A stretch of DNA of 64,000 nucleotides, from positions 46,010-110,009 of the forward strand of contig CAKSBF010000006.1 in NCBI GenBank assembly GCA_934438075.1. The letters are read 5' to 3'. The notes beneath the pieces were generated by a model, which searched no databases, had not been told where the DNA came from, and saw nothing but the letters and a program-made list of their open reading frames with translations. Of this stretch, positions 15,126 to 33,808 are shown piece by piece. Every line of letters begins with the position of its first letter. The stretch's first letter is position 1. A program made the position numbers and the translations under genes. This DNA is from an uncultured Clostridia bacterium (GTDB lineage: Bacteria > Bacillota > Clostridia > UBA1381 > UBA9506).

Positions 15126-17573
15126 TTAATATCCCCTCTCATATTTAAAAATTTTAACAGGCTCCTTTAAACCGCCTCCGGCACTTCCATGTTCAAAGGG
15201 TAAAACCAAATCGTGGTATAGCCCCAGTTCCTCTTTTGTAAACTCTTTCATTCCTTCAGAGAATAAATATTGATTTGCTGCAGTATTTGAAACCCGAATC
15301 TCAAGAACATTTTTACCTTTAACCGCATCTGCGATAAACAAAAAAGGATATACAATACAAATTCCCAGCGATTCGTCATTCAGCCACGCTTCACATGAGT
15401 ATTCAACTTCTCCAACATCAATAATAACAGACATCGCTTCCGACATATAGAAAGAAGCTCTGTAAACCACATCTCCTGAAAAATCTCGTCCGAATAACGT
15501 TTTAAAATCAAAACTGTTTGCTTTTATATAATTTTGCCCCGGAATCTGACAAGACACTTTTTTATTTTTCACTTCAAATTGTTTTACCGCTTTTACGTCG
15601 AAATCCGAAATCACAGTAAGTAATTCTTTATTACCCCTTTTTTCTACCTTCATTGGTTTATCACATGATACAAGGATTATTCCATCGCCGCATCTCAATT
15701 TGAACGTAACAAATCCATCTTGATACATCTCGGTATACTTTCCCGTCGTTATGTCCAATCGATATACATTTTGATTTTCGACAATTCTGAGAATTCCCTC
15801 AGATTCAGTCAGCCCTTCATTATAAATAAAATAGATAACGGAATCAAGTGTACGTGTTTTTCTCCCTCGTAAATTTTCGCATCCTTTTATAGCCAGAAAC
15901 ACACTTGCAGAGCAAATATCTGCCTTTTCTCTTAAAACGACCACCATCCCGCCGTTTTTCTTAAAAATATCAAGTCGTTGTTCAACTTCCTCTGATAAAT
16001 CGCTCTGCAACGGTAAATACACGGTATCATATTCAACGTATCCGGCACATATCTTTCCTTCGCTCAACCTTTCTAAATCAGCATTTAAAATGAGATCGTC
16101 ATCCGCAATGTCAAAATATACATTCGCATTTTCCAATAATTCTGCTGCCTCTGTAAACTCTTGTCCGTCCGAATCGGGGTTCATCCAAAAATTTCTGACG
16201 GGATAGTACAGCAGCACTTTAACTTCCGGCACGCCACAGCTCATAATGTAACAAAGTCGTGCAGCATATTGATTCCATTCTGCAATATCATATGCTCCCG
16301 GTCTTTCTTCAATAAAGTGCGGCCTTAACCCCCCAACGAGTTGACCGTCTTTACCTGATGGAATATTCATGACGTTTATTAAATTAATTCCTCGACATAC
16401 TTGAAAATGCAAGACATAGCACATTTGAGAATATGTAAGGCCGCTCCCATAGGCAGAAAAGGACTCGCTCAAGGCATATCTGCTTCCTGTTTGGTGCGCG
16501 GCACTCGAAGCAAAACGTGGGAAACAGCGGTTTTCTCCTTCTGTTACATCTAATTGAATCTCTCGATACTGATAGGAATAACGATGGTAAGTTCCTGGGA
16601 AAATCTGCCTCCATATTACATCTATCCCCGGCACATCAAAACATCTTAGCAGCCGCATAATCTGCCCATGACTTCTCACACTGTCATATATATCATTATC
16701 CTTATCCAAATGGCCGGTAAATAAAATATTGTGTTCTTTGCACCACTGTTTTATTTGTAAAAAATAATTTTGCGCAAATAACTGACTCATAATATCAAAA
16801 TATTGCTCCCGAACTTTTCCGCCATCTTCACCCGACAAAAGTAAGGGGAGGTGGTCCAACAAGTCATATCCAAATCGTTTTTTGAATTCATCTCGAAGAA
16901 CGTCACTCCAACAAGGAAAGTCTATCGACGGTTCGTCAGTAAATATCATACGAACACCATACTGTGGCAAAGTGTTTAATTCGTTTGCATAGCTTTCGTG
17001 CACGAGAGAAAGAAATGCCCGTGTTGTCTGAAGATTTAGCAAATCCGGATAAATCTCATCCTCTTTCGTCCGAAATATTGTAATCTCCCCATTCACCTCA
17101 AACCGATATTTAGGGAATATGCGTGTATTCTCTAAAAAAACTGCCAACACACTTGCATCACATTCTAATATTTCCCCGGCATGCACCATTTGTTTTTCCC
17201 AAACTATTCTTTTTCTTACGAGCTGAGGATGATTCCGAACCAGCCGGCCATTCCCCCCACCGGACGGCCATCCATCTTCATCATATATCCAAGCATACAT
17301 CTCTTTGCTTTTAGCGTATTGCAGCGCAAAACGATACAGCGCAAAATATGTTCCACTCAAATAATCCGGCTCCATTTGATTATTTAAAAAACGTTTTGAG
17401 CAGGGGATAATATAAAAAACCCTTATACCGCACCGATGCATATACTCAATTTGCTTTATAATGCGCTCCTCCGTTATTTCACTGTTCCAAATCCACGAAT
17501 ATACCGGAGAAAATTCTATTGGCGGAGAAAGTAATTTCCCCATCGAAAAATCAATTTCTTCTGTTCCGTACAT
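15126..17573 (-). CDS. Large cytoplasmic glycoside hydrolase, family unverified (N-terminal region resembles GH106-type rhamnosidase-like proteins)
   Basis: No signal peptide. Contains WIWNSEIT...GIRVFYI...EPDYLS...WIYDEDGWPSGGGNG, a pattern I associate with GH106-like enzymes. Start moved to the ATG at 17573 (AGGAG 7 nt upstream). Confidence 0.5.
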   Translation of the reverse strand: MYGTEEIDFSMGKLLSPPIEFSPVYSWIWNSEITEERIIKQIEYMHRCGIRVFYIIPCSKRFLNNQMEPDYLSGTYFALYRFALQYAKSKEMYAWIYDEDGWPSGGGNGRLVRNHPQLVRKRIVWEKQMVHAGEILECDASVLAVFLENTRIFPKYRFEVNGEITIFRTKEDEIYPDLLNLQTTRAFLSLVHESYANELNTLPQYGVRMIFTDEPSIDFPCWSDVLRDEFKKRFGYDLLDHLPLLLSGEDGGKVREQYFDIMSQLFAQNYFLQIKQWCKEHNILFTGHLDKDNDIYDSVRSHGQIMRLLRCFDVPGIDVIWRQIFPGTYHRYSYQYREIQLDVTEGENRCFPRFASSAAHQTGSRYALSESFSAYGSGLTYSQMCYVLHFQVCRGINLINVMNIPSGKDGQLVGGLRPHFIEERPGAYDIAEWNQYAARLCYIMSCGVPEVKVLLYYPVRNFWMNPDSDGQEFTEAAELLENANVYFDIADDDLILNADLERLSEGKICAGYVEYDTVYLPLQSDLSEEVEQRLDIFKKNGGMVVVLREKADICSASVFLAIKGCENLRGRKTRTLDSVIYFIYNEGLTESEGILRIVENQNVYRLDITTGKYTEMYQDGFVTFKLRCGDGIILVSCDKPMKVEKRGNKELLTVISDFDVKAVKQFEVKNKKVSCQIPGQNYIKANSFDFKTLFGRDFSGDVVYRASFYMSEAMSVIIDVGEVEYSCEAWLNDESLGICIVYPFLFIADAVKGKNVLEIRVSNTAANQYLFSEGMKEFTKEELGLYHDLVLPFEHGSAGGGLKEPVKIFKYERGY

Positions 17574-17631
17574 TAACAGACTCCTTTCATAAATTTGGGG
17601 CATTCCACTTTACGTGAAACGCCCCAATTAT

Positions 17632-19710: not shown

Positions 19711-22356
19711 TTATTTGATAACCAAAATTTCTTTTACACGCTGATAACGTTGGCGCAGGAACACCTTAGCTCCTTTTTCAATGTCCCTTATTGAAATTTT
19801 CTGTATTTTGCCGGATGCCTTGTTCAACTCGAATATTGATATACTATCGTCCAGAGTAAAAGTGGTCCCATTTTTTCCATTAAAAGTCAAAAGCAAAGTT
19901 TCTCCATCTGCATAACTGACCGTACCGTAAGACGTGCCGATTTCACAATTTGTCATTTCAACCTCAAAACGGTCAAAGGTCCGCTTTTCCTCGTCAGAAC
20001 CATCAAAAATGATTTTGTAAAGCAGCAAAACTTCTTCCGTTTCATCTTCACTTGCGCATCCCGTCTCCTGTTCATTCATCTCATACTGAATCATATTCCC
20101 TTTGACACAGTCTTTGAGGAAAGAGGCACGCACTGACAAATCAGGATCTACCTTGATTTTAATATATTCACCATTTACCCAGCCCTCAAGAAATGTTCTT
20201 GTATCCCCTTCATCGTTTAACGCTGTTGTCTTTTTATCAATCAGCATAACATTGCTGTTCGCCAAACTAATCTTTGGCGCAAAGACATGCTTTGGAAGTG
20301 TGGTAGTAATTACCACTGCCCCTGCCTTCATATCTTCTTTCAAATCATAAAATGTAACTGCATATTCTTTATCCGTTTCAAAATATTTAAATGGTTTGCC
20401 GGAGGTATTCAGACTGGTATTTTCACCATTTCCCGGAATATAGAACGCCTTTGTCTCCGAATCAACAATGTATTTCTCATCGAATTTTCCTTTGTTATAG
20501 ACCCTTACATCGCGAGCAACATCGCAGGAAAACCTGCTGTTATCTGCCTGGGATGATGCAAGATTTATTTTATAAACCTTTCCGCTTTGATTCAAATCGT
20601 AAGTGATTAATTGCCTTACAATTTTATTGGTGTTACTTGGATCCGGTGTTCTGTCAAAATAATGAGCAACTTGTACTGCATCCATTTGGTTACAAACCAT
20701 AGTCCCGCTTTCTTCACGTTCAAAACGGATTTTATCTGTCAATTTATATCTTACTATTTTATTATCTGCCACCAACAAACGAAAACTAACATTTTCCGAA
20801 ATTCCTTTTTCTATATCATAATCCAAAAGATAACCATATGTTGAGGCGGAGAACGTCTCCGTGTCCGCAGCAGCAATTTTCCCAAAAATGTCAAGATAGA
20901 ATACACCGCTGTCCCCAACATTGATTTCATCCTTATTCTGTATAATAAAATTGTCTGCAAGCTCATATTGCACATCGCCAATCTGCACCCAATACCGACC
21001 ATTTCCTTTTTCACAGGAATTGACTTTGCCTTCTGTTTTTTCACTGCTGACAACAACATCTATTACCTTTCCATCCCTGCTTGCAGCAACACTAAGAATG
21101 TTCCATGACACCAAATCCTCTACTGTGACCCGTTGTCCGTCTTTGGTAATGGCAACTCTCATGTCACGATCATCTGGATTGTATTTTAAAACTTTATTAT
21201 ATTTATCATATAAAGAGATTTCTTTTTTCCCGATATTTTTTCCGTCAAATACATAGTTTTCATATTCCGTAATGAATACGAAAGTGCCCTTTGCATTTTC
21301 CAGTATTTCGACCGTTCCCCCTGATGGCGCTAACAAATCCTTAGTTTTATCGTTGTCACTCAAGCGTTTTTTATTATAAATCCAAACTGCATCTGCCGGG
21401 ATGTCATATCGTTGGTTTTCACACTCTAACTCATAACCGGTCATGTCTGACTGCACATCAACAATATCCTGAGCCGCAATTTTATACAGATTATTGGATT
21501 TCTTTTTTATAATTGCAGCAATTTTTTGTTCACCATCAGGCGCAGTGGTTAGATAATATGATGCATCATACCCCAAAAAGGAATCTGCATTTTCCAAGCC
21601 CGTCTCATAAATTTCCCCGTCAATCATTACTTCGCCCTCGGCAAGCTTTACCGAAACGTTATTACGAATTGAAGTGATGCTGTTTGCCTCAACAAGCCCC
21701 TGTTTTTTTTCCGTATTGAGCACACGAGAAAGTAGCGTCTCTCCAGTCGGCTCAAAACTCTCTGCTCCGTCTGCCGTTGTTACCTCCTCACAGCGTTCAA
21801 CTTCCAGAGCCGAATAAATCATTAATGCAACATCCCCCCTTTTCGCCTCAGCATCCGGTGTATAATCTATACCATCTAGTATCCCTAACCGCGCAGCAAC
21901 ACTAGCATATCCTGTAGGCCATCCCCCAGCATTTTCAGCATGAATACGATATCCTAACGCGCACACCGTCATTTTAATTGCCTGCATATAAGTGACTTTC
22001 ATTTCCGGACAAAAATTGTATTTATCCATTCCGGATACAATATGCATGCCACGAGCAGATGCAATACTGAAAGCCGCCCAGTGCTCATCAGGTACATCTA
22101 AAAAACCACTTGGAATCGCGGCCGTGTTATCTATACCCATAATTCTCATAATCATTGCTGTATATTCCGCTCTGGTAATAGATGCCAGTGGACGAAAACT
22201 TCCGTCTTCATATCCTCTAACGATATTCAATCCAGAAAGAAGTTCCGTTGCATTTTCATATTTCGTATCAACCGTATCTTCAAACACCGCGCTTGCGGTA
22301 AACGGCATCATCATGATCACCGCAAATATGAATATTAATCGCAATATTTTCTTCAT
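19711..22356 (-). CDS. S-layer-homology (3x SLH) cell-wall-anchored protein with a roughly 690-aa uncharacterised C-terminal region
   Basis: Signal peptide followed by three SLH motifs (FEDTVD...ITRAEYTAMIMRIMG; FLDVPDEHWAA...; GWPTGYASVAARLGILDGI...RGDVALMIYSAL). Its start overlaps the upstream stop (ATGA at 22353-22356). Confidence 0.8.
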   Translation of the reverse strand: MKKILRLIFIFAVIMMMPFTASAVFEDTVDTKYENATELLSGLNIVRGYEDGSFRPLASITRAEYTAMIMRIMGIDNTAAIPSGFLDVPDEHWAAFSIASARGMHIVSGMDKYNFCPEMKVTYMQAIKMTVCALGYRIHAENAGGWPTGYASVAARLGILDGIDYTPDAEAKRGDVALMIYSALEVERCEEVTTADGAESFEPTGETLLSRVLNTEKKQGLVEANSITSIRNNVSVKLAEGEVMIDGEIYETGLENADSFLGYDASYYLTTAPDGEQKIAAIIKKKSNNLYKIAAQDIVDVQSDMTGYELECENQRYDIPADAVWIYNKKRLSDNDKTKDLLAPSGGTVEILENAKGTFVFITEYENYVFDGKNIGKKEISLYDKYNKVLKYNPDDRDMRVAITKDGQRVTVEDLVSWNILSVAASRDGKVIDVVVSSEKTEGKVNSCEKGNGRYWVQIGDVQYELADNFIIQNKDEINVGDSGVFYLDIFGKIAAADTETFSASTYGYLLDYDIEKGISENVSFRLLVADNKIVRYKLTDKIRFEREESGTMVCNQMDAVQVAHYFDRTPDPSNTNKIVRQLITYDLNQSGKVYKINLASSQADNSRFSCDVARDVRVYNKGKFDEKYIVDSETKAFYIPGNGENTSLNTSGKPFKYFETDKEYAVTFYDLKEDMKAGAVVITTTLPKHVFAPKISLANSNVMLIDKKTTALNDEGDTRTFLEGWVNGEYIKIKVDPDLSVRASFLKDCVKGNMIQYEMNEQETGCASEDETEEVLLLYKIIFDGSDEEKRTFDRFEVEMTNCEIGTSYGTVSYADGETLLLTFNGKNGTTFTLDDSISIFELNKASGKIQKISIRDIEKGAKVFLRQRYQRVKEILVIK

Positions 22357-25300
22357 TCACTATTCCCTCCATTTTGATGACCCACTGTCACCCTCATTTG
22401 TTCCTCACATTCCGTTTTTTCAACAAACGCTGTGATAAGTACACTGCCAGGAGAATTACCGCGTACTACCCCGTCTGCATCCACTGACGCTATTGATGGA
22501 TTTGAACTCTCATAGATAATGTTTCCTATTGCATCTGAAGGAGTAATAACAGGTTCTATGTTCATTGTTTCTCCCTCGGAAAGATATACATTATCAGGCA
22601 GACTAATCTGCTTTATTTGAACATTCTCAAAAGTTTTAGGCCACAAAAGATCAGTCGTATAAGTTCTCTCTGAATACCCATCCTCATGCAGCCATAAAAA
22701 ATGCAGGGTATCCAGACTGGCTTCATAAGTAGGGACTTCTTCGTAACGTCCTTTAATTGCGGCATCCAATGCCAATAATGCATACGGATAAGGGCTATTA
22801 AAGTTGGCGTATTTATAGTTTTGACCTTCTGTAAAAAATCCATTGTAAAACTTTTCATTTGCGATATTGTTTCCAATTTGTTTCGCCAACTCTAAATAAT
22901 TCGGATTCGGGTATGCATTGTACAATTCAAGCAATGTAAACAAATAAAGTGCATTACTGCAAGAAGTATTAAAGTTCACATCAATATTCTCTCCGCCTGC
23001 TGTTCCCAAATCTCCTAAGCCTGCTGTTTTACCCATATTTCTAATAAACTGCCACGTCCTGTTATCCCCCGTAAGATTATACAACAGCATGTAGCTTAAA
23101 AACATTTCATCAAATGGTTTGTATTGTTTCAGTACAGTTCCCGCCTCACCATAATAACCGTATTCCTTAAATGTATAGTTTGAAAGGTCTGTTCCATCTG
23201 CCCACATAGGTTTTAATAGATTTTTTTCGGGAATATAAGCATACTCTAAAAATGACTCCATCCCAACTTCTGCATTATTTAAAATATTTTTTGTTTTTTC
23301 CGGAAGTATCTTGCATACATTTAACCAGTTAATTGGCGTTTTTCCATAAATCTGTTTTGTCATTCCACCCCACAATGCATAAGGCTCCAATGCCGCATCG
23401 CCGAATTCCTTCCCGAACTGACGCATTGCGCGATCCCCGAAATAGGAAGAAGTTTTATACGGATAATCGCTGTAAGATACCTTGCCAACATGAGAATAGT
23501 GATTAACTCCTAGATTTGTACCCGGGTAGCGCGCTTTTGTAAACAAATCATCTAGGCGTTCTGCCCACAGCCAAGCTGCCTCATCCCCTGTATGCTGATA
23601 CAACTTTGCCGCCGCATGGAAAAGATCCGTACCGGTTGAAGAAAAGGCAAGATTGACCGAAAAATATGGTATCTCCTCTGGTTCAATAAACCTTTGTTGC
23701 CAAATATTTTGAGGTGTTTTCAGACCATAATGTCCGTGACGATTATAATCAAGATTTCTCCAGTCTCTAATATGGCTGTTCCACACTCCCTTGATAATCT
23801 CTTCTGTTCTTTCCGGTTCGGCTTCGAAAAATAGATCCCAATGGAGACAGTTACTTTTAAACTCGTGATACATTCTGATTGACTTATCACCATACATTTT
23901 TAAATTATCAATATCAACCATTCTGTGATCCCCCCAATAGGGTAACCCGCTGACCGGATCTGAATAGTGTTTTAAAACGTACGAAATTTCATCCTTGGCC
24001 GCATCAACATATTTATTATCTCCCGTAATCTGCGAAAGCCCGTCAAATAGTCTGAGCATGTTCTGACGATTGGATAAATTAGAAAAGCTCACTACTTGCC
24101 CTTCTGCTTCGTCAATTTCATCCGACATTCTCCATTGAGCAAATTCCTTGCTGTAGACATTAATTCCATCTGCAAATAACGGCGTAGGGTTCACTCGGCT
24201 GTGCCCATACTTTAATATGTTCTCCGCCTGCGTGACAACCTCGTCAAAACGGCTTTCATCATCCGCGTTATACACCACCTTATTTACGGTAATGCTCTTT
24301 TCTGCATAAATATTCCCATTTGCTTTGCTGACCGCACGTAAGACAAATTTAGCCGGAAGGACGGTATTCCCGTCAACAGTAACCACACCGTCATCGTTGA
24401 TAGCAATTCCTTCTCTTTCGCCAGAAGAAATACTCCATCTAACCCCCCCAATAGATGCCTCTCTTCCAAACTGATCATAAACCTTCGCGTGAAATGTTTT
24501 TTCCGCCGCATTTCCGTTAACAGAGTGGATATAGCCGGGACCTGTTATTTCAACATTATCAATGGATTCCGATAAAAGAGATACTTCTATGGATTTTGTT
24601 ACATTTGGATTAGAGATTGCCGTAGTCTTCAGTGTAATTTTATCTGCCGTGACACCTGCTTTAACCGTTAAGTCTCCATTTTCATCCAAAGCAACGCCGT
24701 CCGGTAACATATCTGCGCTCCATACTGCCGTATCCTCTGTGTTCAGTCTATCATCCGGGTTTAAAACACCAGCTCGGTAAGCGTAAATCTTTTCCCCTGT
24801 CATCGGAATCGCAATCTGGTTGGGACCGGTAATTTCAATATCCGCCGCTTCATTAGGGGGAAGCAAAAAATCTACCCGAAAATCATCAAAATACATTTCA
24901 CCAGGATTTCCATAGCGGTAAAATGCTGTTCTCACCCTCGACACGTGAGAAAATTCCGTGTCAAAACACAGCTTTACGCCAGATAATATAACTTTACCAT
25001 CAATCAAATAATTAGCTGTGCGATTTTCGAGGTTTACATCCATACGAATATCATACCATCGATCTGCCTCATATGTGCAAGCAGTAACCGACGTCGTTCC
25101 GTTATACACGGAAAACACACCATTGCTAATATCAAGTCGTGCTCCATAATAAGACGTTTCATTGTCTAAAAAAACATAAGAAGTCGCATCTGTTTGTTTC
25201 AATAAAATCTTAAAACTTACACTGATAATCCCATATTCCTGGTCAAAAAACTGAAGATAGGAGTCTCTTTGCTGATTATCCGTCGGGTCAGCATATTTTT

Positions 25301-26876
25301 TACTGCATACCATCTTTCCATAGTTCTCGCCAATTCCGTTCTCACTATCTTGAGCAACTCGGAAAGTCCAATTATTCTCGTCTTCAATCTTCCACATCCA
25401 TGTTTCATAATCTTCTACGGTTTGCAGAGTCTGATCCGGTTCTGTTTCTGTCGGTATTCGACGATGAGGCGGTTGCTTTCCAACCGTATAACTCTCAAAA
25501 TCATCAAAGCAGCTACGTTCTAATCGACAGTTCTCCAAAGGATCCGGAAGAATAACCTCTTTTCGTTTCGTCTGGACGTTATCCAGATAAATACCATCTT
25601 CTCCAACAACGCCCAGTTTAATTCGTTTCAAATCTACTCCAAAGCCACCGGAGGCTGTATCGAACGGAATATTATAGCCCTGAGAACTCTCTATTGGCAC
25701 ATCATCAATATAAATATTATAGTAAGGCTCCGCCGCATCAAAATACATTACAAATTTATAATTATACCATGTGTCCAGACGATAATCTGCAATTGTCTCT
25801 CTAATCACCGCCGTATCTAGCATGACACTTCCATCTGCCATATACCCTAAACAAGAAATACGCTTATTATTTGAGCTGTATAACTGGACGAATCTCGGAC
25901 CTGTTTGTTTCGGAAAACAAATATCATATTCCAGCATAGCAGTACCTGAAACCACTCCTGAACTAACGAGCTTATAGTTAGCATGGTGAAGTGCGCCATT
26001 GCCCGTATGTTCCGAAATAACGGCAAATCTCGATTGGTTTCCCGCAAAATCCGCTTTTGAAGTAATGCTCATATCATTATTCTGCCATCCATCCCATCCC
26101 CCAAATCGATTGGGCAGCGAACCATCAGCGGTATATTCAAAATCTTCATTCATAAAATCAGAGAAATTTTCTTTTCTCCAATCAGGAATTTCTTTTACCT
26201 CCTCAATGCTTTTTATTGTAATATTATCAAGCGCTATCCCACATTGTTCCGTCAGACCAAACTTTAAACGGGCAATGTTCGTTCCGACCATGCTGTTCTC
26301 GTTTGTGTCAAGCGGACATCGAGATGCTGTTTCCACGTCATTTATCCAAAAATTATATGTGCCTGTTTTAAAGCTGACGTCGAACATCAAATCATACCAA
26401 CACCCCGCTTCATATTGTCCGATTTCTCCAGTGTATGTATTTGTATCTACTGCTATAACACCATCAGCCGAAAAGTTCAAATTTGTTAGACGCACACCGT
26501 TCGCATCATAAATTTGTATGCTCCGAAAAGCCATTTTATCAGTGAAATACGCTTGAAACGAAAGCACCAGTCTTTCGTCGGACTGATAAGATTCATTGAA
26601 AGACCAATTACAATATCTGGTTCCCTTTCGCGAAAAATTATCCTTAAGCAACAAAAATTTTGTATTATTTCCGTACTGAGCCTGTTGTGTTTCAACAATA
26701 ACACGTTGACCAGAAAAACCATCAAAGCTCCCTACACCAACTGGAACCACTCCAACCGTTTCTTGCTCAAAATTTTCGTCATACAATTGCTGCTCTTCAA
26801 AATTCTGGGCATCGATAATAGGCATTGTCATCATAAGCATTACCATCATCATTAAAAAAGAAATATATTTCTTCAT
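22353..26876 (-). CDS. 1507-aa secreted multidomain protein: 3 lectin/LamG-like modules, 2 Ig-like domains, a roughly 550-aa helix-rich putative catalytic region and a C-terminal Big_2
   Basis: True start is the ATG at 26876 (MKKYISFLMMMVMLMMTMPIIDAQ signal peptide), which overlaps the GH105 stop (ATGA). Domain boundaries were read from internal repeats in the translation. Confidence 0.8.
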   Translation of the reverse strand: MKKYISFLMMMVMLMMTMPIIDAQNFEEQQLYDENFEQETVGVVPVGVGSFDGFSGQRVIVETQQAQYGNNTKFLLLKDNFSRKGTRYCNWSFNESYQSDERLVLSFQAYFTDKMAFRSIQIYDANGVRLTNLNFSADGVIAVDTNTYTGEIGQYEAGCWYDLMFDVSFKTGTYNFWINDVETASRCPLDTNENSMVGTNIARLKFGLTEQCGIALDNITIKSIEEVKEIPDWRKENFSDFMNEDFEYTADGSLPNRFGGWDGWQNNDMSITSKADFAGNQSRFAVISEHTGNGALHHANYKLVSSGVVSGTAMLEYDICFPKQTGPRFVQLYSSNNKRISCLGYMADGSVMLDTAVIRETIADYRLDTWYNYKFVMYFDAAEPYYNIYIDDVPIESSQGYNIPFDTASGGFGVDLKRIKLGVVGEDGIYLDNVQTKRKEVILPDPLENCRLERSCFDDFESYTVGKQPPHRRIPTETEPDQTLQTVEDYETWMWKIEDENNWTFRVAQDSENGIGENYGKMVCSKKYADPTDNQQRDSYLQFFDQEYGIISVSFKILLKQTDATSYVFLDNETSYYGARLDISNGVFSVYNGTTSVTACTYEADRWYDIRMDVNLENRTANYLIDGKVILSGVKLCFDTEFSHVSRVRTAFYRYGNPGEMYFDDFRVDFLLPPNEAADIEITGPNQIAIPMTGEKIYAYRAGVLNPDDRLNTEDTAVWSADMLPDGVALDENGDLTVKAGVTADKITLKTTAISNPNVTKSIEVSLLSESIDNVEITGPGYIHSVNGNAAEKTFHAKVYDQFGREASIGGVRWSISSGEREGIAINDDGVVTVDGNTVLPAKFVLRAVSKANGNIYAEKSITVNKVVYNADDESRFDEVVTQAENILKYGHSRVNPTPLFADGINVYSKEFAQWRMSDEIDEAEGQVVSFSNLSNRQNMLRLFDGLSQITGDNKYVDAAKDEISYVLKHYSDPVSGLPYWGDHRMVDIDNLKMYGDKSIRMYHEFKSNCLHWDLFFEAEPERTEEIIKGVWNSHIRDWRNLDYNRHGHYGLKTPQNIWQQRFIEPEEIPYFSVNLAFSSTGTDLFHAAAKLYQHTGDEAAWLWAERLDDLFTKARYPGTNLGVNHYSHVGKVSYSDYPYKTSSYFGDRAMRQFGKEFGDAALEPYALWGGMTKQIYGKTPINWLNVCKILPEKTKNILNNAEVGMESFLEYAYIPEKNLLKPMWADGTDLSNYTFKEYGYYGEAGTVLKQYKPFDEMFLSYMLLYNLTGDNRTWQFIRNMGKTAGLGDLGTAGGENIDVNFNTSCSNALYLFTLLELYNAYPNPNYLELAKQIGNNIANEKFYNGFFTEGQNYKYANFNSPYPYALLALDAAIKGRYEEVPTYEASLDTLHFLWLHEDGYSERTYTTDLLWPKTFENVQIKQISLPDNVYLSEGETMNIEPVITPSDAIGNIIYESSNPSIASVDADGVVRGNSPGSVLITAFVEKTECEEQMRVTVGHQNGGNSE

Positions 26877-27901
26877 GATATATGTTGCTCCCCCCTTTTC
26901 CACACATCCAATTCTACAAGCATTAATAATGCTAACCCCTGACCCCATGGCATAATTTCTGACCGATCTATTTCATAATACATTTGCACCGTTTCCTGAA
27001 TACCCGTTCCGCAAGATACATCCGTAACCGTTCCATCATCTGCTATTTTTGCAATAACTGCCTCTGCCCCTTTTTTTGCACACTCCTTAAATTCCTCACC
27101 CAAAAGCCCCATACGCATACCCTTCAGGATTCCACATACAAATCCCTCCGATGCCGACACTTCACAATAAGAGTTTTTGTCTGTTAAAACAGTATGCCAG
27201 AGTCCATTATTATCCTGACATTCTTTTACTGCCCGCACCTGATTCTGAAATCCTTTTATGATATCCTCATCTTTAATCTTTGAAAATTCAACAATTTCAG
27301 GTACACTTACCGTAAACCACGCATTACCCCTACCCCAAAGAACTGAGGATAAGTGATTTTTCAGCTTATAATCATAACCGTGATAAAAAAGCCCGCTTGA
27401 TTCCTGAATCGCATCTATATGTAATCGAACCTGTTTCAGTCCTTCCTCAACATATTCGGTACGTCCCGTGACAGTTCCGATACGTGTAAGGAATACGCCG
27501 GCCATAAACACGGTATCAATCCACGCTTGAGCTGTCCAATGTAACCCAACACCACTGTGTTCCAGTATCCCATTCTCCGTTCTCGGCGCAGCATCCATCA
27601 ACCAATCAGCAAATTCTGTGCAAATGTCAAGATATTTTGTATCTCCGGTCTCTCTATAAAGCATCAGCACAGAACAAAGAGGTGCTGTTGTATTGACTGT
27701 TTTCGGGATTTGTGTTTGTTCCATAGAAATATCCACAAAATATTGAATAAAATCAAAAATCTCTTGATCTCGCGTATATTCAAACGCCCGTGAAAGGCCA
27801 TACAAAGCGACACCTGCACCCCAGTCCCATGCTCCTCGCTTGTCAACGTTTAAGTCCATTTGCATTGTTCTTTTTGCCACCTTAATGATTAATTCATTCA
27901 T
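26873..27901 (-). CDS. GH105 unsaturated rhamnogalacturonyl/uronyl hydrolase (YteR/YesR-like)
   Basis: 342 aa with WIDTVFMAG (catalytic Asp context), WGRGNAWF and PWGQG motifs typical of GH105/GH88. No signal peptide. Confidence 0.8.
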   Translation of the reverse strand: MNELIIKVAKRTMQMDLNVDKRGAWDWGAGVALYGLSRAFEYTRDQEIFDFIQYFVDISMEQTQIPKTVNTTAPLCSVLMLYRETGDTKYLDICTEFADWLMDAAPRTENGILEHSGVGLHWTAQAWIDTVFMAGVFLTRIGTVTGRTEYVEEGLKQVRLHIDAIQESSGLFYHGYDYKLKNHLSSVLWGRGNAWFTVSVPEIVEFSKIKDEDIIKGFQNQVRAVKECQDNNGLWHTVLTDKNSYCEVSASEGFVCGILKGMRMGLLGEEFKECAKKGAEAVIAKIADDGTVTDVSCGTGIQETVQMYYEIDRSEIMPWGQGLALLMLVELDVWKRGEQHIS

Positions 27902-30378: not shown

Positions 30379-31260
30379 CTACCCTTTCACAGCACCAATC
30401 ATAAGCCCTTTAACAAAATACTTTTGTAAAAATGGATAAACCATAACAATTGGAAGCATCGTGACAACAATAACGGCATATTTTACAGTTTCTCCAGCCG
30501 CCTCCTGATCTACCGCACCTACACCTGCAGTCATAGATAAAGTTTCATTTTGCAATAAAATTTCTCTTAAAATTAGCTGCAACGGATAAAGCTGCCGATC
30601 CTGTAAAAAAATCATTGCATAAAACCACGCATTCCAGTGAGCAACTCCGTAATAAAGCACCATAACTGCAACCACAGGTAACGATAGCGGCAAAATCATG
30701 CCCACTAAAATTCTAAAATGACCTGCGCCGTCAAGTTTTGCCGACTCTTCAATACTATCCGGAATGCCCTCAAAAGAAGTCCTCATAATAATCAGGTTAA
30801 ATGTATTAATTGCATTCGGTAATACAAGAGCCCAAAGACTGTTATATAAACCCAAATCTCTCACGGTAAAGTAAAACGGTATTAAACCACCAGAGAAGAA
30901 CATTGTAAACACAATTAAAAAATTAATAATCTTTTTAAAATATACATTTTTTCTGGAAAGAAAGTATGCTCCTATCGATGTCATAGTAATATTAATCATG
31001 AGACCTACAATAACAACAAAAAGAGTATTCCCATAACCTCGCAAAATCATAGGATTTTTAAATACCATTTTATATGCGGCAAGGGTAAAGCCTTTCGGGC
31101 TTAGCAAAAAACCCTGATGTGACATAATCTCATACGAGCCGCTCATAGAAGCAAAGACCACATGAACAACTGGATACAATGCTATGAGGCATAGCAAAAA
31201 CATAACAACGTTATTGATTATTTGAAATATTGTACTTTTTACACTATTTTCTCCTACCAT
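30379..31260 (-). CDS. Carbohydrate ABC transporter permease (LplC-like)
   Basis: Six predicted TM segments and the EAA-type loop IEESAKLDGAGHFRIL. Start moved to the ATG at 31260 (GGGGGAG RBS). Confidence 0.85.
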   Translation of the reverse strand: MVGENSVKSTIFQIINNVVMFLLCLIALYPVVHVVFASMSGSYEIMSHQGFLLSPKGFTLAAYKMVFKNPMILRGYGNTLFVVIVGLMINITMTSIGAYFLSRKNVYFKKIINFLIVFTMFFSGGLIPFYFTVRDLGLYNSLWALVLPNAINTFNLIIMRTSFEGIPDSIEESAKLDGAGHFRILVGMILPLSLPVVAVMVLYYGVAHWNAWFYAMIFLQDRQLYPLQLILREILLQNETLSMTAGVGAVDQEAAGETVKYAVIVVTMLPIVMVYPFLQKYFVKGLMIGAVKG

Positions 31261-31273
31261 TTTTCTCCCCCGT

Positions 31274-32233
31274 TCACCATAAACCATTTCCGTTAATTGA
31301 CTTACTTGCTGTATTTGCTACGATCAACAACATAAAATTAATAACAGAATTAAATAAACCAACGGCCGCCCCGTAGCTCCAGCCAAATTCCTGCAGACCC
31401 TTTCTATATACAAAGGTGGATATGACATCTGCAGTATCATATATTACTGCATTATACAGTAATATAATCTTTTCAAAACCAACATTTAAAATATTACCAA
31501 TCCGAAGCAACAACATAATCATAATGGTAGGAAGAATCCCCGGCAACGTAACATGAAGGGTTTGCCTCATACGACCGGCGCCATCCAGACAACTTGCCTC
31601 ATAAAGCTGCGGATCAATCGTCGTAAACGCAGAAAGATATATAATTGTCCCCCAACCCACTTCTTGCCAGATATCTGATATAACATAAATCGGAACAAAA
31701 AATTCCGGTTTTGTAAGCATATCTACGCGAGTACCGCCAAAAAAAGCAATAACGTCATTGATCACACCATCTTCTGCCGTAAAATCCTTTACAATACTTG
31801 CCACAACTACCAATGAAATAAAATGAGGCAAATATGTAATTGTTTGTACACATTTTTTAAAGCGCATATTTTTCATCTCATTAAGCAAAAGGGCAAGAAT
31901 AATTGGAGCAGGAAAACCAAAAACCAAATTGTTTAAACTAATTACAATGGTATTTTTCAAAACTCTCCAAAAAGTATGACTTTGAAAAAAATTGTTAAAG
32001 TGTAAAAATCCAACAAAATCACTGCCCATAATACCTTTTGTCGGGTCAAAATTTTTAAATGCAATAATAGCTCCATACATGGGTTTGTAACAAAACAGCG
32101 CATAAAACAGAAGGACCGGAAGTACTAATAGGTATAGACCTCTATTACGTCTTAAATCGTTTTTAATAGTATATAATGTCTCAAAGCAGCGGCCAGATTG
32201 CACGCCGCTTTGAGTCTTGTACATTGAATTCAT
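31274..32233 (-). CDS. Carbohydrate ABC transporter permease (LplB-like)
   Basis: 319 aa with YEASCLDGAGRMRQ in the EAA loop and an N-terminal LRRNRGLYLLVLPVLLFYALFCYKPMYG typical of LplB. Confidence 0.85.
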   Translation of the reverse strand: MNSMYKTQSGVQSGRCFETLYTIKNDLRRNRGLYLLVLPVLLFYALFCYKPMYGAIIAFKNFDPTKGIMGSDFVGFLHFNNFFQSHTFWRVLKNTIVISLNNLVFGFPAPIILALLLNEMKNMRFKKCVQTITYLPHFISLVVVASIVKDFTAEDGVINDVIAFFGGTRVDMLTKPEFFVPIYVISDIWQEVGWGTIIYLSAFTTIDPQLYEASCLDGAGRMRQTLHVTLPGILPTIMIMLLLRIGNILNVGFEKIILLYNAVIYDTADVISTFVYRKGLQEFGWSYGAAVGLFNSVINFMLLIVANTASKSINGNGLW

Positions 32234-32251
32234 AGTATCCCCTTCCAGTTA

Positions 32252-33808
32252 TTATCTATTATTGAACCTTTCAAGAGCTGACTGTTTAATTTCTAGCGCC
32301 CTTTGCAGCCCTAAAGATTCTATAGTTTTTACATATTCTTCAAACTTTTCGATACTCTCTACACCCATAATAAACTTAGCAATCATTTCATCTTGGTATG
32401 TAGTAATGTCTGTCGTGATTGTTGCCAATTCGCTCGTCTCATCCTGGAGCACATAAACTAGCGGCATGGCATGTTCTATCGCATCAGTGTCGGGCCAGAT
32501 TTTGAGGGCTTCCTTTTGTTCCGGAAGCTGTGCATACTGCTCCATATACCGCTTATCCTGCACAAACGGTCCGGATTCATATGCCTTAAGATATTTTGCC
32601 ATAGCAGCTGTTATAGATAACCCATCGGGGTTATTCATAATCTCATCTGTGTATGTAGGATATCCATCGACCATTTTAAAGCTTTTTCCTTCAATTCCAA
32701 AATTATTAAGAATGTGCCCTTCTTCACCATATCCATAATCAAGCAGTTTAGCCGCAGTTTCATAAGATTTGCATTTCGTCGTAATGGCAGCACCAATTCC
32801 ATTGATAGGAAGTGAAACCTGCCCAAATTTTGGACGCTCTCCCTTTTTTAATGTAGGATATTTTGCCGGCACAAGCTTAAATCCATCTACTTTTCCTTTT
32901 GCAGCAGCAGAAATTCTTCCGATACCGCCACCAATCGTCAGCGGTGTAGCACCACAATTACCATTTAAAATTTTAGAATCCAGGGTTGTACTGTCGTTCG
33001 TCATAAAACTACGATCAATCAATCCCTCATTGTACCACTTATTAAATGTTTTTAAAAATTCGAGAAAACCTGGTTCCGTACCACCAAATTTAACAACATC
33101 TCCATCAACATAAAATGATTTTGTGGCTCCATACGCACCAGAAAAAAGACCCCAATCCAATACGTTAGACAAAGTGAAACTCAGCGGTGCAGTAGCATTT
33201 TTCTTTTCTTTAAATGCTTTTAAAACGTTATACCATTCATCAATTGTTTCCGGGATATCAAGTTTTAACTCCTCAAGCCAATCCCCGCGAAGAGCAATTC
33301 CTGCGGCTGTCAGCAAAGAATCATCACCCCGAATAAACGGGTAGCAAAAATATTGTCCCGAATCGGTCTTAAGATCAGATTTATATTGAGGATTCGCCTC
33401 AAGAAAATTTTTAAGGTTGGGAGAATCTTTCTCCATAATATCGTTTAAGTTTATAATATAACCATCATTTATTGCTTTTTCAGGTCCTCCCGGGAATTCA
33501 CTCCAATTACACTCGACAATATCCGGAAGTTCTTTTGATGCAATCATTAGGTTAAATTGTTCTTTTTCTTGTGAAACAGGAGGGTGGATGTAGTTAACCC
33601 GCACACCCGTCCTTTCCATTAACGTTTTACCATATTCCGATTCCCCCAATGTAGTTGTCGTAGAGCTTAAATTTGGGTCAATTCTCACCCAGTAAGTCAG
33701 TGTCTCTTCATTGTTTGCTTTTTTCGCCTTCTTTTCACCTGTACAACCGGATAAGATACTAACGGCAACAGTCACTGATAATAACCCGCATAACATCTTC
33801 TTCGTCAT
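32252..33808 (-). CDS. Extracellular solute-binding lipoprotein (LplA-like, large family-1 SBP)
   Basis: 518 aa with a lipobox ILSGC after the signal peptide. First gene of the SBP-permease-permease set. No ATPase gene in the locus. Confidence 0.85.
   Translation of the reverse strand: MTKKMLCGLLSVTVAVSILSGCTGEKKAKKANNEETLTYWVRIDPNLSSTTTTLGESEYGKTLMERTGVRVNYIHPPVSQEKEQFNLMIASKELPDIVECNWSEFPGGPEKAINDGYIINLNDIMEKDSPNLKNFLEANPQYKSDLKTDSGQYFCYPFIRGDDSLLTAAGIALRGDWLEELKLDIPETIDEWYNVLKAFKEKKNATAPLSFTLSNVLDWGLFSGAYGATKSFYVDGDVVKFGGTEPGFLEFLKTFNKWYNEGLIDRSFMTNDSTTLDSKILNGNCGATPLTIGGGIGRISAAAKGKVDGFKLVPAKYPTLKKGERPKFGQVSLPINGIGAAITTKCKSYETAAKLLDYGYGEEGHILNNFGIEGKSFKMVDGYPTYTDEIMNNPDGLSITAAMAKYLKAYESGPFVQDKRYMEQYAQLPEQKEALKIWPDTDAIEHAMPLVYVLQDETSELATITTDITTYQDEMIAKFIMGVESIEKFEEYVKTIESLGLQRALEIKQSALERFNNR

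Follow-up and report, generated by a model that had tools for sequence, protein, structure and literature searches.

A 64,000-nucleotide stretch of Clostridia DNA (the window) encodes a very large, putatively secreted protein whose helix-rich centre raises a simple question: what kind of enzyme, if any, is it? The initial annotation had placed this core of about 550 residues between Ig-like domains and a C-terminal Big_2 domain, and had proposed it as a candidate new catalytic module, a polysaccharide lyase or glycosidase of an undescribed or poorly sampled family. We find that the core, residues ~895-1445, is the catalytic domain of a CAZy PL2 enzyme with an (alpha/alpha)7 barrel.

The frame that encodes the protein is open from 22353 to 26948 (-) and comprises 1531 codons. 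The true start is likely to be M25, the ATG at 26876, judging from its sequence context: it is preceded by the ribosome binding site AAGGGGGGAG, lies in an ATGA overlap with the stop codon of a GH105 gene, and gives a product of 1507 residues (22353..26876 (-), the frame staying open as far as 26948) that begins with a putative Sec signal peptide, read by eye as MKKYISFLMMMVMLMMTMPIIDA followed by Q (26808..26876 (-)). The stop codon of the PL2 gene in turn overlaps the start of the gene for an SLH protein, also as ATGA. Plus-strand ORFs across the PL2 gene were set aside as shadow frames, none of at least 100 residues lying within 22614-24266. In a word-index search limited to long proteins the product matched only itself, which we do not take as uniqueness because many multidomain PL2s turned up when the search was run exhaustively with HMMER.

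The assignment to PL2 comes from profile, sequence and structure comparisons alike. Pfam PF06917 (Pectate_lyase_2, CAZy PL2) scores 493 bits on the core, where 26.6 would suffice (E=1.2e-147), over profile positions 1-484 of 491, with an envelope at nt 22716-24185 (-), residues 922-1411, and in a six-frame search of the genome the same profile gave the core 496.8 bits. Searched with phmmer against the PDB, the core retrieved the YePL2A structures 6OJK, 6OJL, 2V8I and 2V8J at E~1e-107 to 1e-108 and the VvPL2 structure 5A29 at E=9e-75. All 128 word-index homologues carry PF06917, several bearing the name pectate lyase, and a fusion of a CE8 pectinesterase with PL2 (P0136) links the family to pectin. 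The AF2 model of the core (pLDDT 94.2, pTM 0.94) is helix-dominated, with 14 long helices, and Foldseek superposes it on 2V8I with TM 0.94/0.96 and an rmsd of 1.6 Å over 547 columns, and on 5A29 with TM 0.92. Much of the initial description is borne out by these results: the core occupies nt 22614-24266 (-), exactly residues 895-1445, with every quoted peptide present; its helix-forming, aromatic character is real (15.4% aromatic residues); and the guess of an (alpha/alpha) toroid lyase feeding the cytoplasmic GH105 agrees with the PL2 profile and fold. What falls is the undescribed family, because the core has a confident profile match to a known CAZy family, the very outcome that the initial annotation had itself named as fatal to the idea. 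That the core could nevertheless found a new CAZy family, or be an (alpha/alpha)6 toroid glycoside hydrolase or epimerase, is barely credible: the sub-threshold Pfam matches to GH88, GH127 and GlcNAc 2-epimerase (E=0.0035-0.08), which we dismiss as reflecting only the toroid architecture in common, and the next Foldseek fold class, the AGE-type epimerases at TM ~0.44, stand against E=1e-147 for PF06917, TM 0.94-0.96 to the PL2 structures and a core that keeps the PL2 catalytic residues. Since the core belongs to a described family that cuts pectin, the result is of use as annotation rather than as the discovery of a new enzyme type, and a false lead to a new enzyme family is removed.

The other half of the proposal, poor sampling, holds in part: the family is described, but it is small (searching 1.84 billion representatives gave 214 clusters at E<=1e-30), and the branch that contains the core has no characterised member among the libraries searched. 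Over the full domain the core shares at most 41% identity with any other protein in these libraries, a 379-residue fragment reaching 50%. In the tree, the core and a fragment, P0061, form a clade of their own (SH-aLRT 100) with a stem of 1.1, which joins the tree at an unresolved polytomy and lies outside both the endo (YePL2A) and the exo (PelW) clades.

Is the core an active enzyme? Residue conservation was read from a MAFFT alignment of 121 sequences, the codons of residues 1029, 1031, 1070 and 1071 being checked, and the roles of His109, Glu130, Lys132, Arg171, His172 and Arg272 of YePL2A are those summarised in PMC10992409. His1008 (23925..23927 (-)) corresponds to the metal ligand His109, in a column that is His in 117 of 121 sequences; Glu1029 and Lys1031 (23856..23864 (-)) align with Glu130, which serves the metal and the +1 subsite, and with Lys132 of the +1 subsite; Arg1070 and His1071 (23736..23741 (-)) align with the Bronsted base Arg171 (Arg in 120/121) and the metal ligand His172 (His in 118/121); and Arg1173, which with Tyr1169 lies at 23430..23444 (-), aligns with Arg272 in a column that is Arg throughout (121/121). 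The core keeps the metal ligands H1008, E1029 and H1071, the base R1070, R1173 and K1031. Degenerate enzyme folds often occur in the large surface proteins of such loci, and by that analogy the core might be a catalytically dead, PL2-derived module whose sole role is to keep pectin at the cell surface; we think this very improbable, because this copy and the genome's two PL2 paralogues alike retain the base, the two metal-binding histidines, the glutamate and the pair of arginines.

By homology, the enzyme would carry out a metal-assisted beta-elimination of alpha-1,4-polygalacturonate, the de-esterified pectin backbone. His1008, His1071 and Glu1029 would hold a divalent, probably transition, metal, which would neutralise the carboxylate at C6 of the galacturonate in subsite +1; the C5 proton would be abstracted by Arg1070, with Arg1173 and Lys1031 holding the substrate, and the expected products would be 4,5-unsaturated oligogalacturonides.

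The characterised PL2s are, to our knowledge, single-domain enzymes, mostly from Proteobacteria. Among the closest in kind is YePL2A of Yersinia enterocolitica (PL2 subfamily 1; 2V8I/2V8J/2V8K, 6OJK, 6OJL), which is 35-37% identical to the core over the whole domain and shares with it the Pfam family, the (alpha/alpha)7 barrel, the metal ligands, the catalytic Arg, the second Arg and the Lys; like the 1507-residue protein it is exported. However, YePL2A is a single-domain periplasmic endo-pectate lyase of ~570 residues from a Gram-negative bacterium, whereas the PL2 core described here is one part of a multidomain protein made by a Gram-positive anaerobe of the gut. Two YePL2A residues are replaced: K291 by Tyr (Tyr1169, at the position also numbered Lys268) and Glu515 by His (His1416), the latter being the commonest residue in its column (70/121), with K1031 conserved at the Lys132 position. 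The exo-polygalacturonate (disaccharide) lyases PelW, YePL2B and VvPL2 (5A29), of PL2 subfamily 2 or transitional, have the same family and fold, but they are cytoplasmic, while the 1507-residue lyase has a putative signal peptide; PelW resembles the core in having His at the Glu515 position and differs at the exo-determining position, Trp in PelW and Tyr in the core. The core thus sits with neither subfamily. It lies outside the YePL2A clade and has Tyr instead of Lys at position 291, unlike the endo subfamily 1; it scores 292.6 bits with the NCBIfam PelW equivalog, whose cut-off is 1000, has Tyr and not Trp at 291, and carries the putative signal peptide, unlike the exo subfamily 2. One PDB entry is titled 'YePL2A K291W', and this column is Trp in PelW; work by Jones in J Struct Biol in 2019 reportedly found that K291W gives exo character. 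Since the core has Tyr where YePL2A has Lys and PelW has Trp, an endo or exo mode cannot be read from this residue.

The modules around the core resemble those of another large PL2 protein. Following the signal peptide are three tandem concanavalin/CBM-like beta-sandwich modules of ~210 residues (24849..26807 (-); residues 48-257, 258-473 and 474-700), matched by PF22585 (Sialidase-like_CBM) at E=6.6e-19 with the whole protein and, when the modules were searched singly against Pfam, at 4e-8 for module 1 and 3e-8 for module 3, with no hit for module 2. Two tandem repeats of ~95 residues come next (24273..24848 (-); residues ~701-892), 27% identical to one another (E=6e-5) and Big_2-like in sequence pattern; Pfam and PDB sequence searches returned no match for them, and the Ig-like domains of the initial annotation are a plausible label. 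The Big_2 domain that it placed after the core is confirmed (22410..22598 (-); residues 1451-1513; PF02368, E=1.4e-9). The CBM-like region has its homologues in the N-terminal modules of P0137, a metagenomic, Clostridia-type PL2 protein of 2237 residues composed of CBM-like, Ig, PL2, Big_2 and three SLH modules, and the two proteins are collinear over 911 residues at 33% identity, a span that takes in the last CBM-like module, the ~95-residue repeats, PL2 and Big_2.

A wall anchor is absent from the 1507-residue lyase itself. In P0137, P0154, P0161 and P0149, all uncharacterised cell-surface PL2s of Gram-positive type, PL2 is fused straight to C-terminal or internal SLH repeats. Here, in contrast, the SLH repeats are on the translationally coupled gene downstream (19711..22356 (-)), a conserved partner of Clostridia PL2 genes, whose 881-residue product combines a signal peptide and three SLH repeats with a beta-rich remainder of ~700 residues. 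For this partner, Pfam gave nothing beyond SLH, a PDB profile search matched SLH only, and the AF2 model (pLDDT 66) had a Foldseek match for the SLH part only; the claim that the lyase core was the only uncharacterised secreted domain of the locus was thus not quite right, as these ~700 residues and a 686-residue protein are likewise unassigned. A full-length SLH homologue of ~890 residues lies directly downstream of PL2 in all nine Clostridia loci examined (9/9), and such a partner follows the PL2 gene in G057, the genome locus that matches the P0137 type. From this gene order we infer that the anchor-less lyase may work at the cell surface together with its co-translated, SLH-anchored neighbour, and that the two proteins may interact.

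The rest of the locus offers a route for the products. Upstream and translationally coupled is a cytoplasmic unsaturated uronyl hydrolase of GH88/GH105 type (26873..27901 (-); PF07470, E=3e-78) that has PDB matches 3PMM, 3QWT and 4XUV and no signal peptide, and further on is an ABC sugar importer consisting of a lipoprotein solute-binding protein and two permeases (30379..33808 (-); PF01547, two PF00528, lipobox LSGC). Unsaturated oligomers would enter through this importer and be trimmed by the GH105 enzyme, and the freed unsaturated uronate would pass to KduI, which is found in the genome. Taken as a whole, the explanation that a secreted PL2 polygalacturonate lyase acts at the surface with its SLH partner and feeds the importer, GH105 and KduI seems to us probable. 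With a PL2 lyase as its outer enzyme, the locus now has a coherent annotation as one for pectin/uronate utilisation in a Gram-positive bacterium.

The alternative that survives best concerns the substrate: a beta-eliminating lyase of PL2 fold whose natural target is not homogalacturonan, and hence a new specificity inside PL2. Homogalacturonan use is usually accompanied by PL1, GH28 and CE8, and none of the three was found in searches of this genome (87% complete), where GH88/105 accounts for 14 hits and heparinase II/III-like proteins for seven. The locus also encodes a relative of GH106-like rhamnosidases and a CE15/Abhydrolase_7-like esterase, and therefore the true substrate could be a rhamnose-containing or other uronate-containing glycan; candidates are rhamnogalacturonan-type, gum/arabinogalactan-type, algal, host or microbial acidic glycans. 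The deep, long-stem lineage of the core, with no more than 41% identity to full-length relatives, points the same way, as does a GH105 enzyme nearer to the 3PMM/3QWT/4XUV group and the NCBIfam 'BglB' model than to YteR. Against this, the described metal-site residues and, apart from His at the Glu515 position, those of the +1 galacturonate subsite are conserved; the predicted backbone stays within 1.6 Å of YePL2A; the paralogous PL2 loci have GDSL-type esterases, like pectin acetyl-esterase systems; the genome is only 87% complete; and galacturonan is the substrate on which every characterised PL2 acts (PMC10992409). On balance we regard another substrate as unlikely, and give a low probability to the broader proposal that the Clostridia PL2s supply the catalysis in a surface machine built from two proteins, in which the SLH protein tethers or presents the lyase, and that their deep branch cuts an acidic glycan other than homogalacturonan, with a new PL2 specificity.

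Returning to the polygalacturonate lyase that we favour, a parallel comes from Monoglobus pectinilyticus, a human-gut pectin specialist that reportedly (in work by Kim et al. in ISME J in 2019) has SLH-anchored pectinolytic enzymes. Both are small-genome gut Clostridia, and both would display large multimodular pectin lyases on the wall via SLH, but the Monoglobus enzymes are reportedly PL1, PL9, GH28 and CE8, whereas the lyase here is PL2 and no PL1, GH28 or CE8 was found. The PL2-SLH pairing, and a Tyr that is ambiguous as an endo/exo switch residue, raise testable questions on how lyases are displayed in Gram-positive gut bacteria and what this branch targets. PL2 is rare in Clostridia, occurring in 9 of 400 genomes sampled, and a Hadza-associated, 2.4-Mb human-gut Clostridia MAG with three PL2 genes, divergent and multidomain, is of some value to CAZyme specialists. 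The identical 1507-residue protein is present on three ENA metagenome contigs, one of which is from a Hadza human-gut assembly.

The core of the giant secreted protein is a full-length PL2 (polysaccharide lyase family 2) catalytic domain. It is encoded by nucleotides 22614-24266, in exact correspondence with residues 895-1445 of ORF 22353..26948 on the minus strand. Residues 922-1411 match the Pfam profile PF06917 (Pectate_lyase_2, 'periplasmic pectate lyase') at 493 bits (E=1.2e-147; cut-off, 26.6 bits), covering profile positions 1-484 of 491. A phmmer comparison of the core with the PDB sequences gave significant matches to two enzymes only: Yersinia enterocolitica YePL2A (6OJK, 6OJL, 2V8I and 2V8J; E~1e-107 to 1e-108) and Vibrio vulnificus VvPL2 (5A29; E=9e-75). 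The AlphaFold2 model, with 66 homologues as input (mean pLDDT 94.2, pTM 0.94), is a toroid, and Foldseek placed 2V8I at the top (TM 0.94/0.96, rmsd 1.6 Å across 547 columns), with 5A29 reaching TM 0.92; among other folds the nearest class, the AGE-type (alpha/alpha)6 epimerases, had a TM of only ~0.44. Matches to GH88, GH127 and epimerase Pfam profiles inside the core are weak (E 0.0035-0.08) and reflect the shared toroid architecture only. The initial annotation, which had proposed this modelling, put the core forward as a candidate enzyme of an undescribed or poorly sampled family. The claim of an undescribed family is refuted by the annotation's own criterion, a confident profile match to a known CAZy family (here PF06917): the protein belongs to a known family, of which it is a new multidomain member with a divergent sequence. 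Its functional guess was right, the core being a lyase with an alpha/alpha toroid, which would feed the GH105 of the locus.

In YePL2A, His109, His172 and Glu130 are metal ligands, Arg171 is the Brønsted base, Arg272 is catalytic, and the +1 subsite is made up of Glu130, Lys132 and Glu515 (PMC10992409). We aligned 121 sequences (the query and its homologues) and read the columns against YePL2A: H1008 (His109; metal ligand), E1029 (Glu130; metal and +1 subsite), K1031 (Lys132; +1 subsite), R1070 (Arg171; Brønsted base), H1071 (His172; metal ligand) and R1173 (Arg272) are all conserved. With these six residues, the core would have the full set for PL2-type metal-assisted beta-elimination. The position of Glu515 is occupied by H1416; His is the majority state here (70/121) and is also present in the PL2 enzyme PelW.

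Against the NCBIfam equivalog for exo-acting PelW the protein scores 292.6 bits (cut-off, 1000). In a 75-sequence ML tree its sole partner is P0061, a 379-aa metagenomic fragment (PL2+Big_2, 50% identity), and the pair, on a long stem (1.1) attached to an unresolved polytomy, lies outside both the YePL2A-containing clade and the PelW clade. PDB entry 6OJK is entitled 'YePL2A K291W'; this substitution, reportedly the work of Jones et al. in 2019, is said to bring in a tryptophan from the exo-acting PL2B and to give exo character. The column is very variable (Gln in the closest relative): whereas YePL2A has Lys and PelW has Trp, the PL2 protein carries Tyr1169, an aromatic residue that could favour exo-like binding.

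The ORF is open across 1531 codons and contains all the peptide strings and the core coordinates originally reported. Public gene calls begin the protein at M37 (1495 aa), but M25 (ATG at 26876, within positions 26840-26948 of the window) is the most probable start, because the RBS AAGGGGGGAG precedes this ATG, which shares an ATGA overlap with the stop of the GH105 gene upstream. Starting at M25, the protein has 1507 aa and a classic Sec signal peptide (MKK-hydrophobic-IDA|Q) with its n-region restored; the stop of the gene overlaps the start of the next one, also as ATGA. The protein comprises: (i) three N-terminal modules of ~210 aa, of which modules 1 and 3 match PF22585 (Sialidase-like CBM); (ii) two tandem repeats of ~95 aa each, 27% identical to each other, which have no match in Pfam or among PDB sequences and look Ig-like; (iii) the core; and (iv) a C-terminal Big_2 domain (residues 1451-1513, E=1.4e-9), as had been proposed.

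The PL2 family is small: when 1.84 billion cluster representatives were searched exhaustively with HMMER, 721 matched at E≤1e-3 and 214 at the stricter E≤1e-30. The best full-length non-self match to the core had 41% identity, and a word-index search gave a maximum of ~40-41%. Multidomain proteins are not rare among the HMMER matches, lengths of 800-2400 aa being common, and include fusions to SLH repeats (P0154, P0161 and P0149), HEAT repeats (P0131, 902 aa) and a CE8 pectinesterase (P0136, 891 aa), the last of which would be a Rosetta-stone link from PL2 to methyl-esterified pectin. P0137 (2237 aa) is collinear with the PL2 protein across 911 aa at 33% identity (CBM-like, Ig, Ig, PL2, Big_2) but extends past Big_2 into three SLH repeats. 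This architecture is therefore already represented among known sequences, although we know of no biochemically characterised example. Related single-domain PL2 proteins occur in Yersinia, Paenibacillus, Opitutaceae, Acidobacteriota, Planctomycetota, Bacteroidota and Bacillota MAGs.

All genes of the locus share the minus strand and are separated by -17 to 144 nt, in the order lipoprotein SBP, two permeases, membrane AraC-type regulator, GH105 (no signal peptide), PL2 protein, SLH protein and 686-aa Big_2 protein (all three with signal peptides), and finally a GH106-like protein and an Abhydrolase_7/CE15-like esterase, both cytoplasmic. The obvious reading of this parts list is that the PL2 enzyme would cleave the polymer extracellularly, the ABC system would take up the unsaturated oligomers, GH105 would remove the unsaturated uronate and KduI would pass it to central metabolism. 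The GH105 (26873-27901 (-)) is nearer to the 3PMM/3QWT/4XUV group than to the YteR-type unsaturated rhamnogalacturonyl hydrolases (64 bits), and scores 281 bits against NCBIfam 'beta-galactosidase BglB', under the cut-off of 420. The 825-aa cytoplasmic protein at 15126-17603 (-) weakly matches GH106 alpha-L-rhamnosidases (65 bits; 83 bits against the NCBIfam BT4145 model, cut-off 1300) and is a divergent relative of uncertain activity.

A homologue of the SLH partner (window 19711-22356 (-)) directly follows the PL2 gene in all nine Clostridia loci opened: the window, the two paralogous loci of the same genome (L012 3293-6028; L013 3861-6539), one congener and five from other families of the class (the remaining coordinates being L014 3797-6493; L097 6085-8778; L098 5934-8621; L099 5603-8302; L100 6263-8926; L101 8275-10899). 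These ~890-aa homologues are full-length (874-911 aa, 27-31% identity, E 1e-81 to 1e-105), and in the genome G057 the partner is present although the PL2 protein bears its own SLH anchor. At least three of the nine loci have a GH105-like gene directly upstream of PL2. Besides SLH, the partner has a ~700-aa beta-rich region (AF2 pLDDT 66), and among known structures the SLH trimer alone found a match. Outside SLH, the partner's sequence is that of a wide family: 137 of the 400 class genomes encode it, and copy numbers per genome are high (the window's own genome has 34 first-look candidates). Members next to PL2 stand apart as a subgroup scoring 560-930 bits, versus ≤320 bits for all others, and within those 400 they are confined to PL2-bearing genomes. 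From gene order, the partner would plausibly serve the lyase, which has no anchor, as a subunit that holds it to the wall or presents its substrate.

The window's genome (G000) is a 2.43-Mb MAG of 25 contigs, 87% complete; three ENA metagenome contigs encode the identical PL2 protein, and one of these belongs to a Hadza human-gut assembly. PL2 is present in 4/8 species of the genus, in 0/33 other genomes searched from the family and order, and, across the class, over the cut-off in 9 of a sample of 400 genomes, where most of the ORFs concerned measure 1100-2250 aa. Three PL2 genes (ORFs of 1531, 1103 and 1107 aa) are present in the window's genome, all with intact catalytic residues, the domains of the two multidomain paralogues (C1:509333-510817, L012 5992-9303; C1:98894-100528, L013 6553-9876) being only ~30% identical to the window's. 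Upstream of each paralogue, a protein of ~1000-1100 aa with a GDSL esterase domain is encoded; downstream come the SLH partner and then a giant ORF (>1100 aa), and a GH88/105 gene lies 10-17 kb away.

We consider homogalacturonan the most likely substrate, with good confidence. A different acidic glycan is given a small, though real, chance, since PL1 (PF00544), GH28 and CE8 were not found in the 87%-complete genome and the PL2 domain is on a deep branch; a PL11 N-domain search gave no match in the genome but none in 14 control genomes either, and is thus uninformative. The wider repertoire points to a specialist in acidic glycans degraded by lyases rather than a classical pectin degrader, because PL1, GH28 and CE8 went undetected alongside 14 GH88/GH105 matches, KduI, and seven heparinase II/III-like and eight beta-helix matches (these two mostly in ORFs >1000 aa). 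One GH88/105 match (C4:75423-76364) has an in-frame TAA stop, which could mark a pseudogene or come from misassembly.
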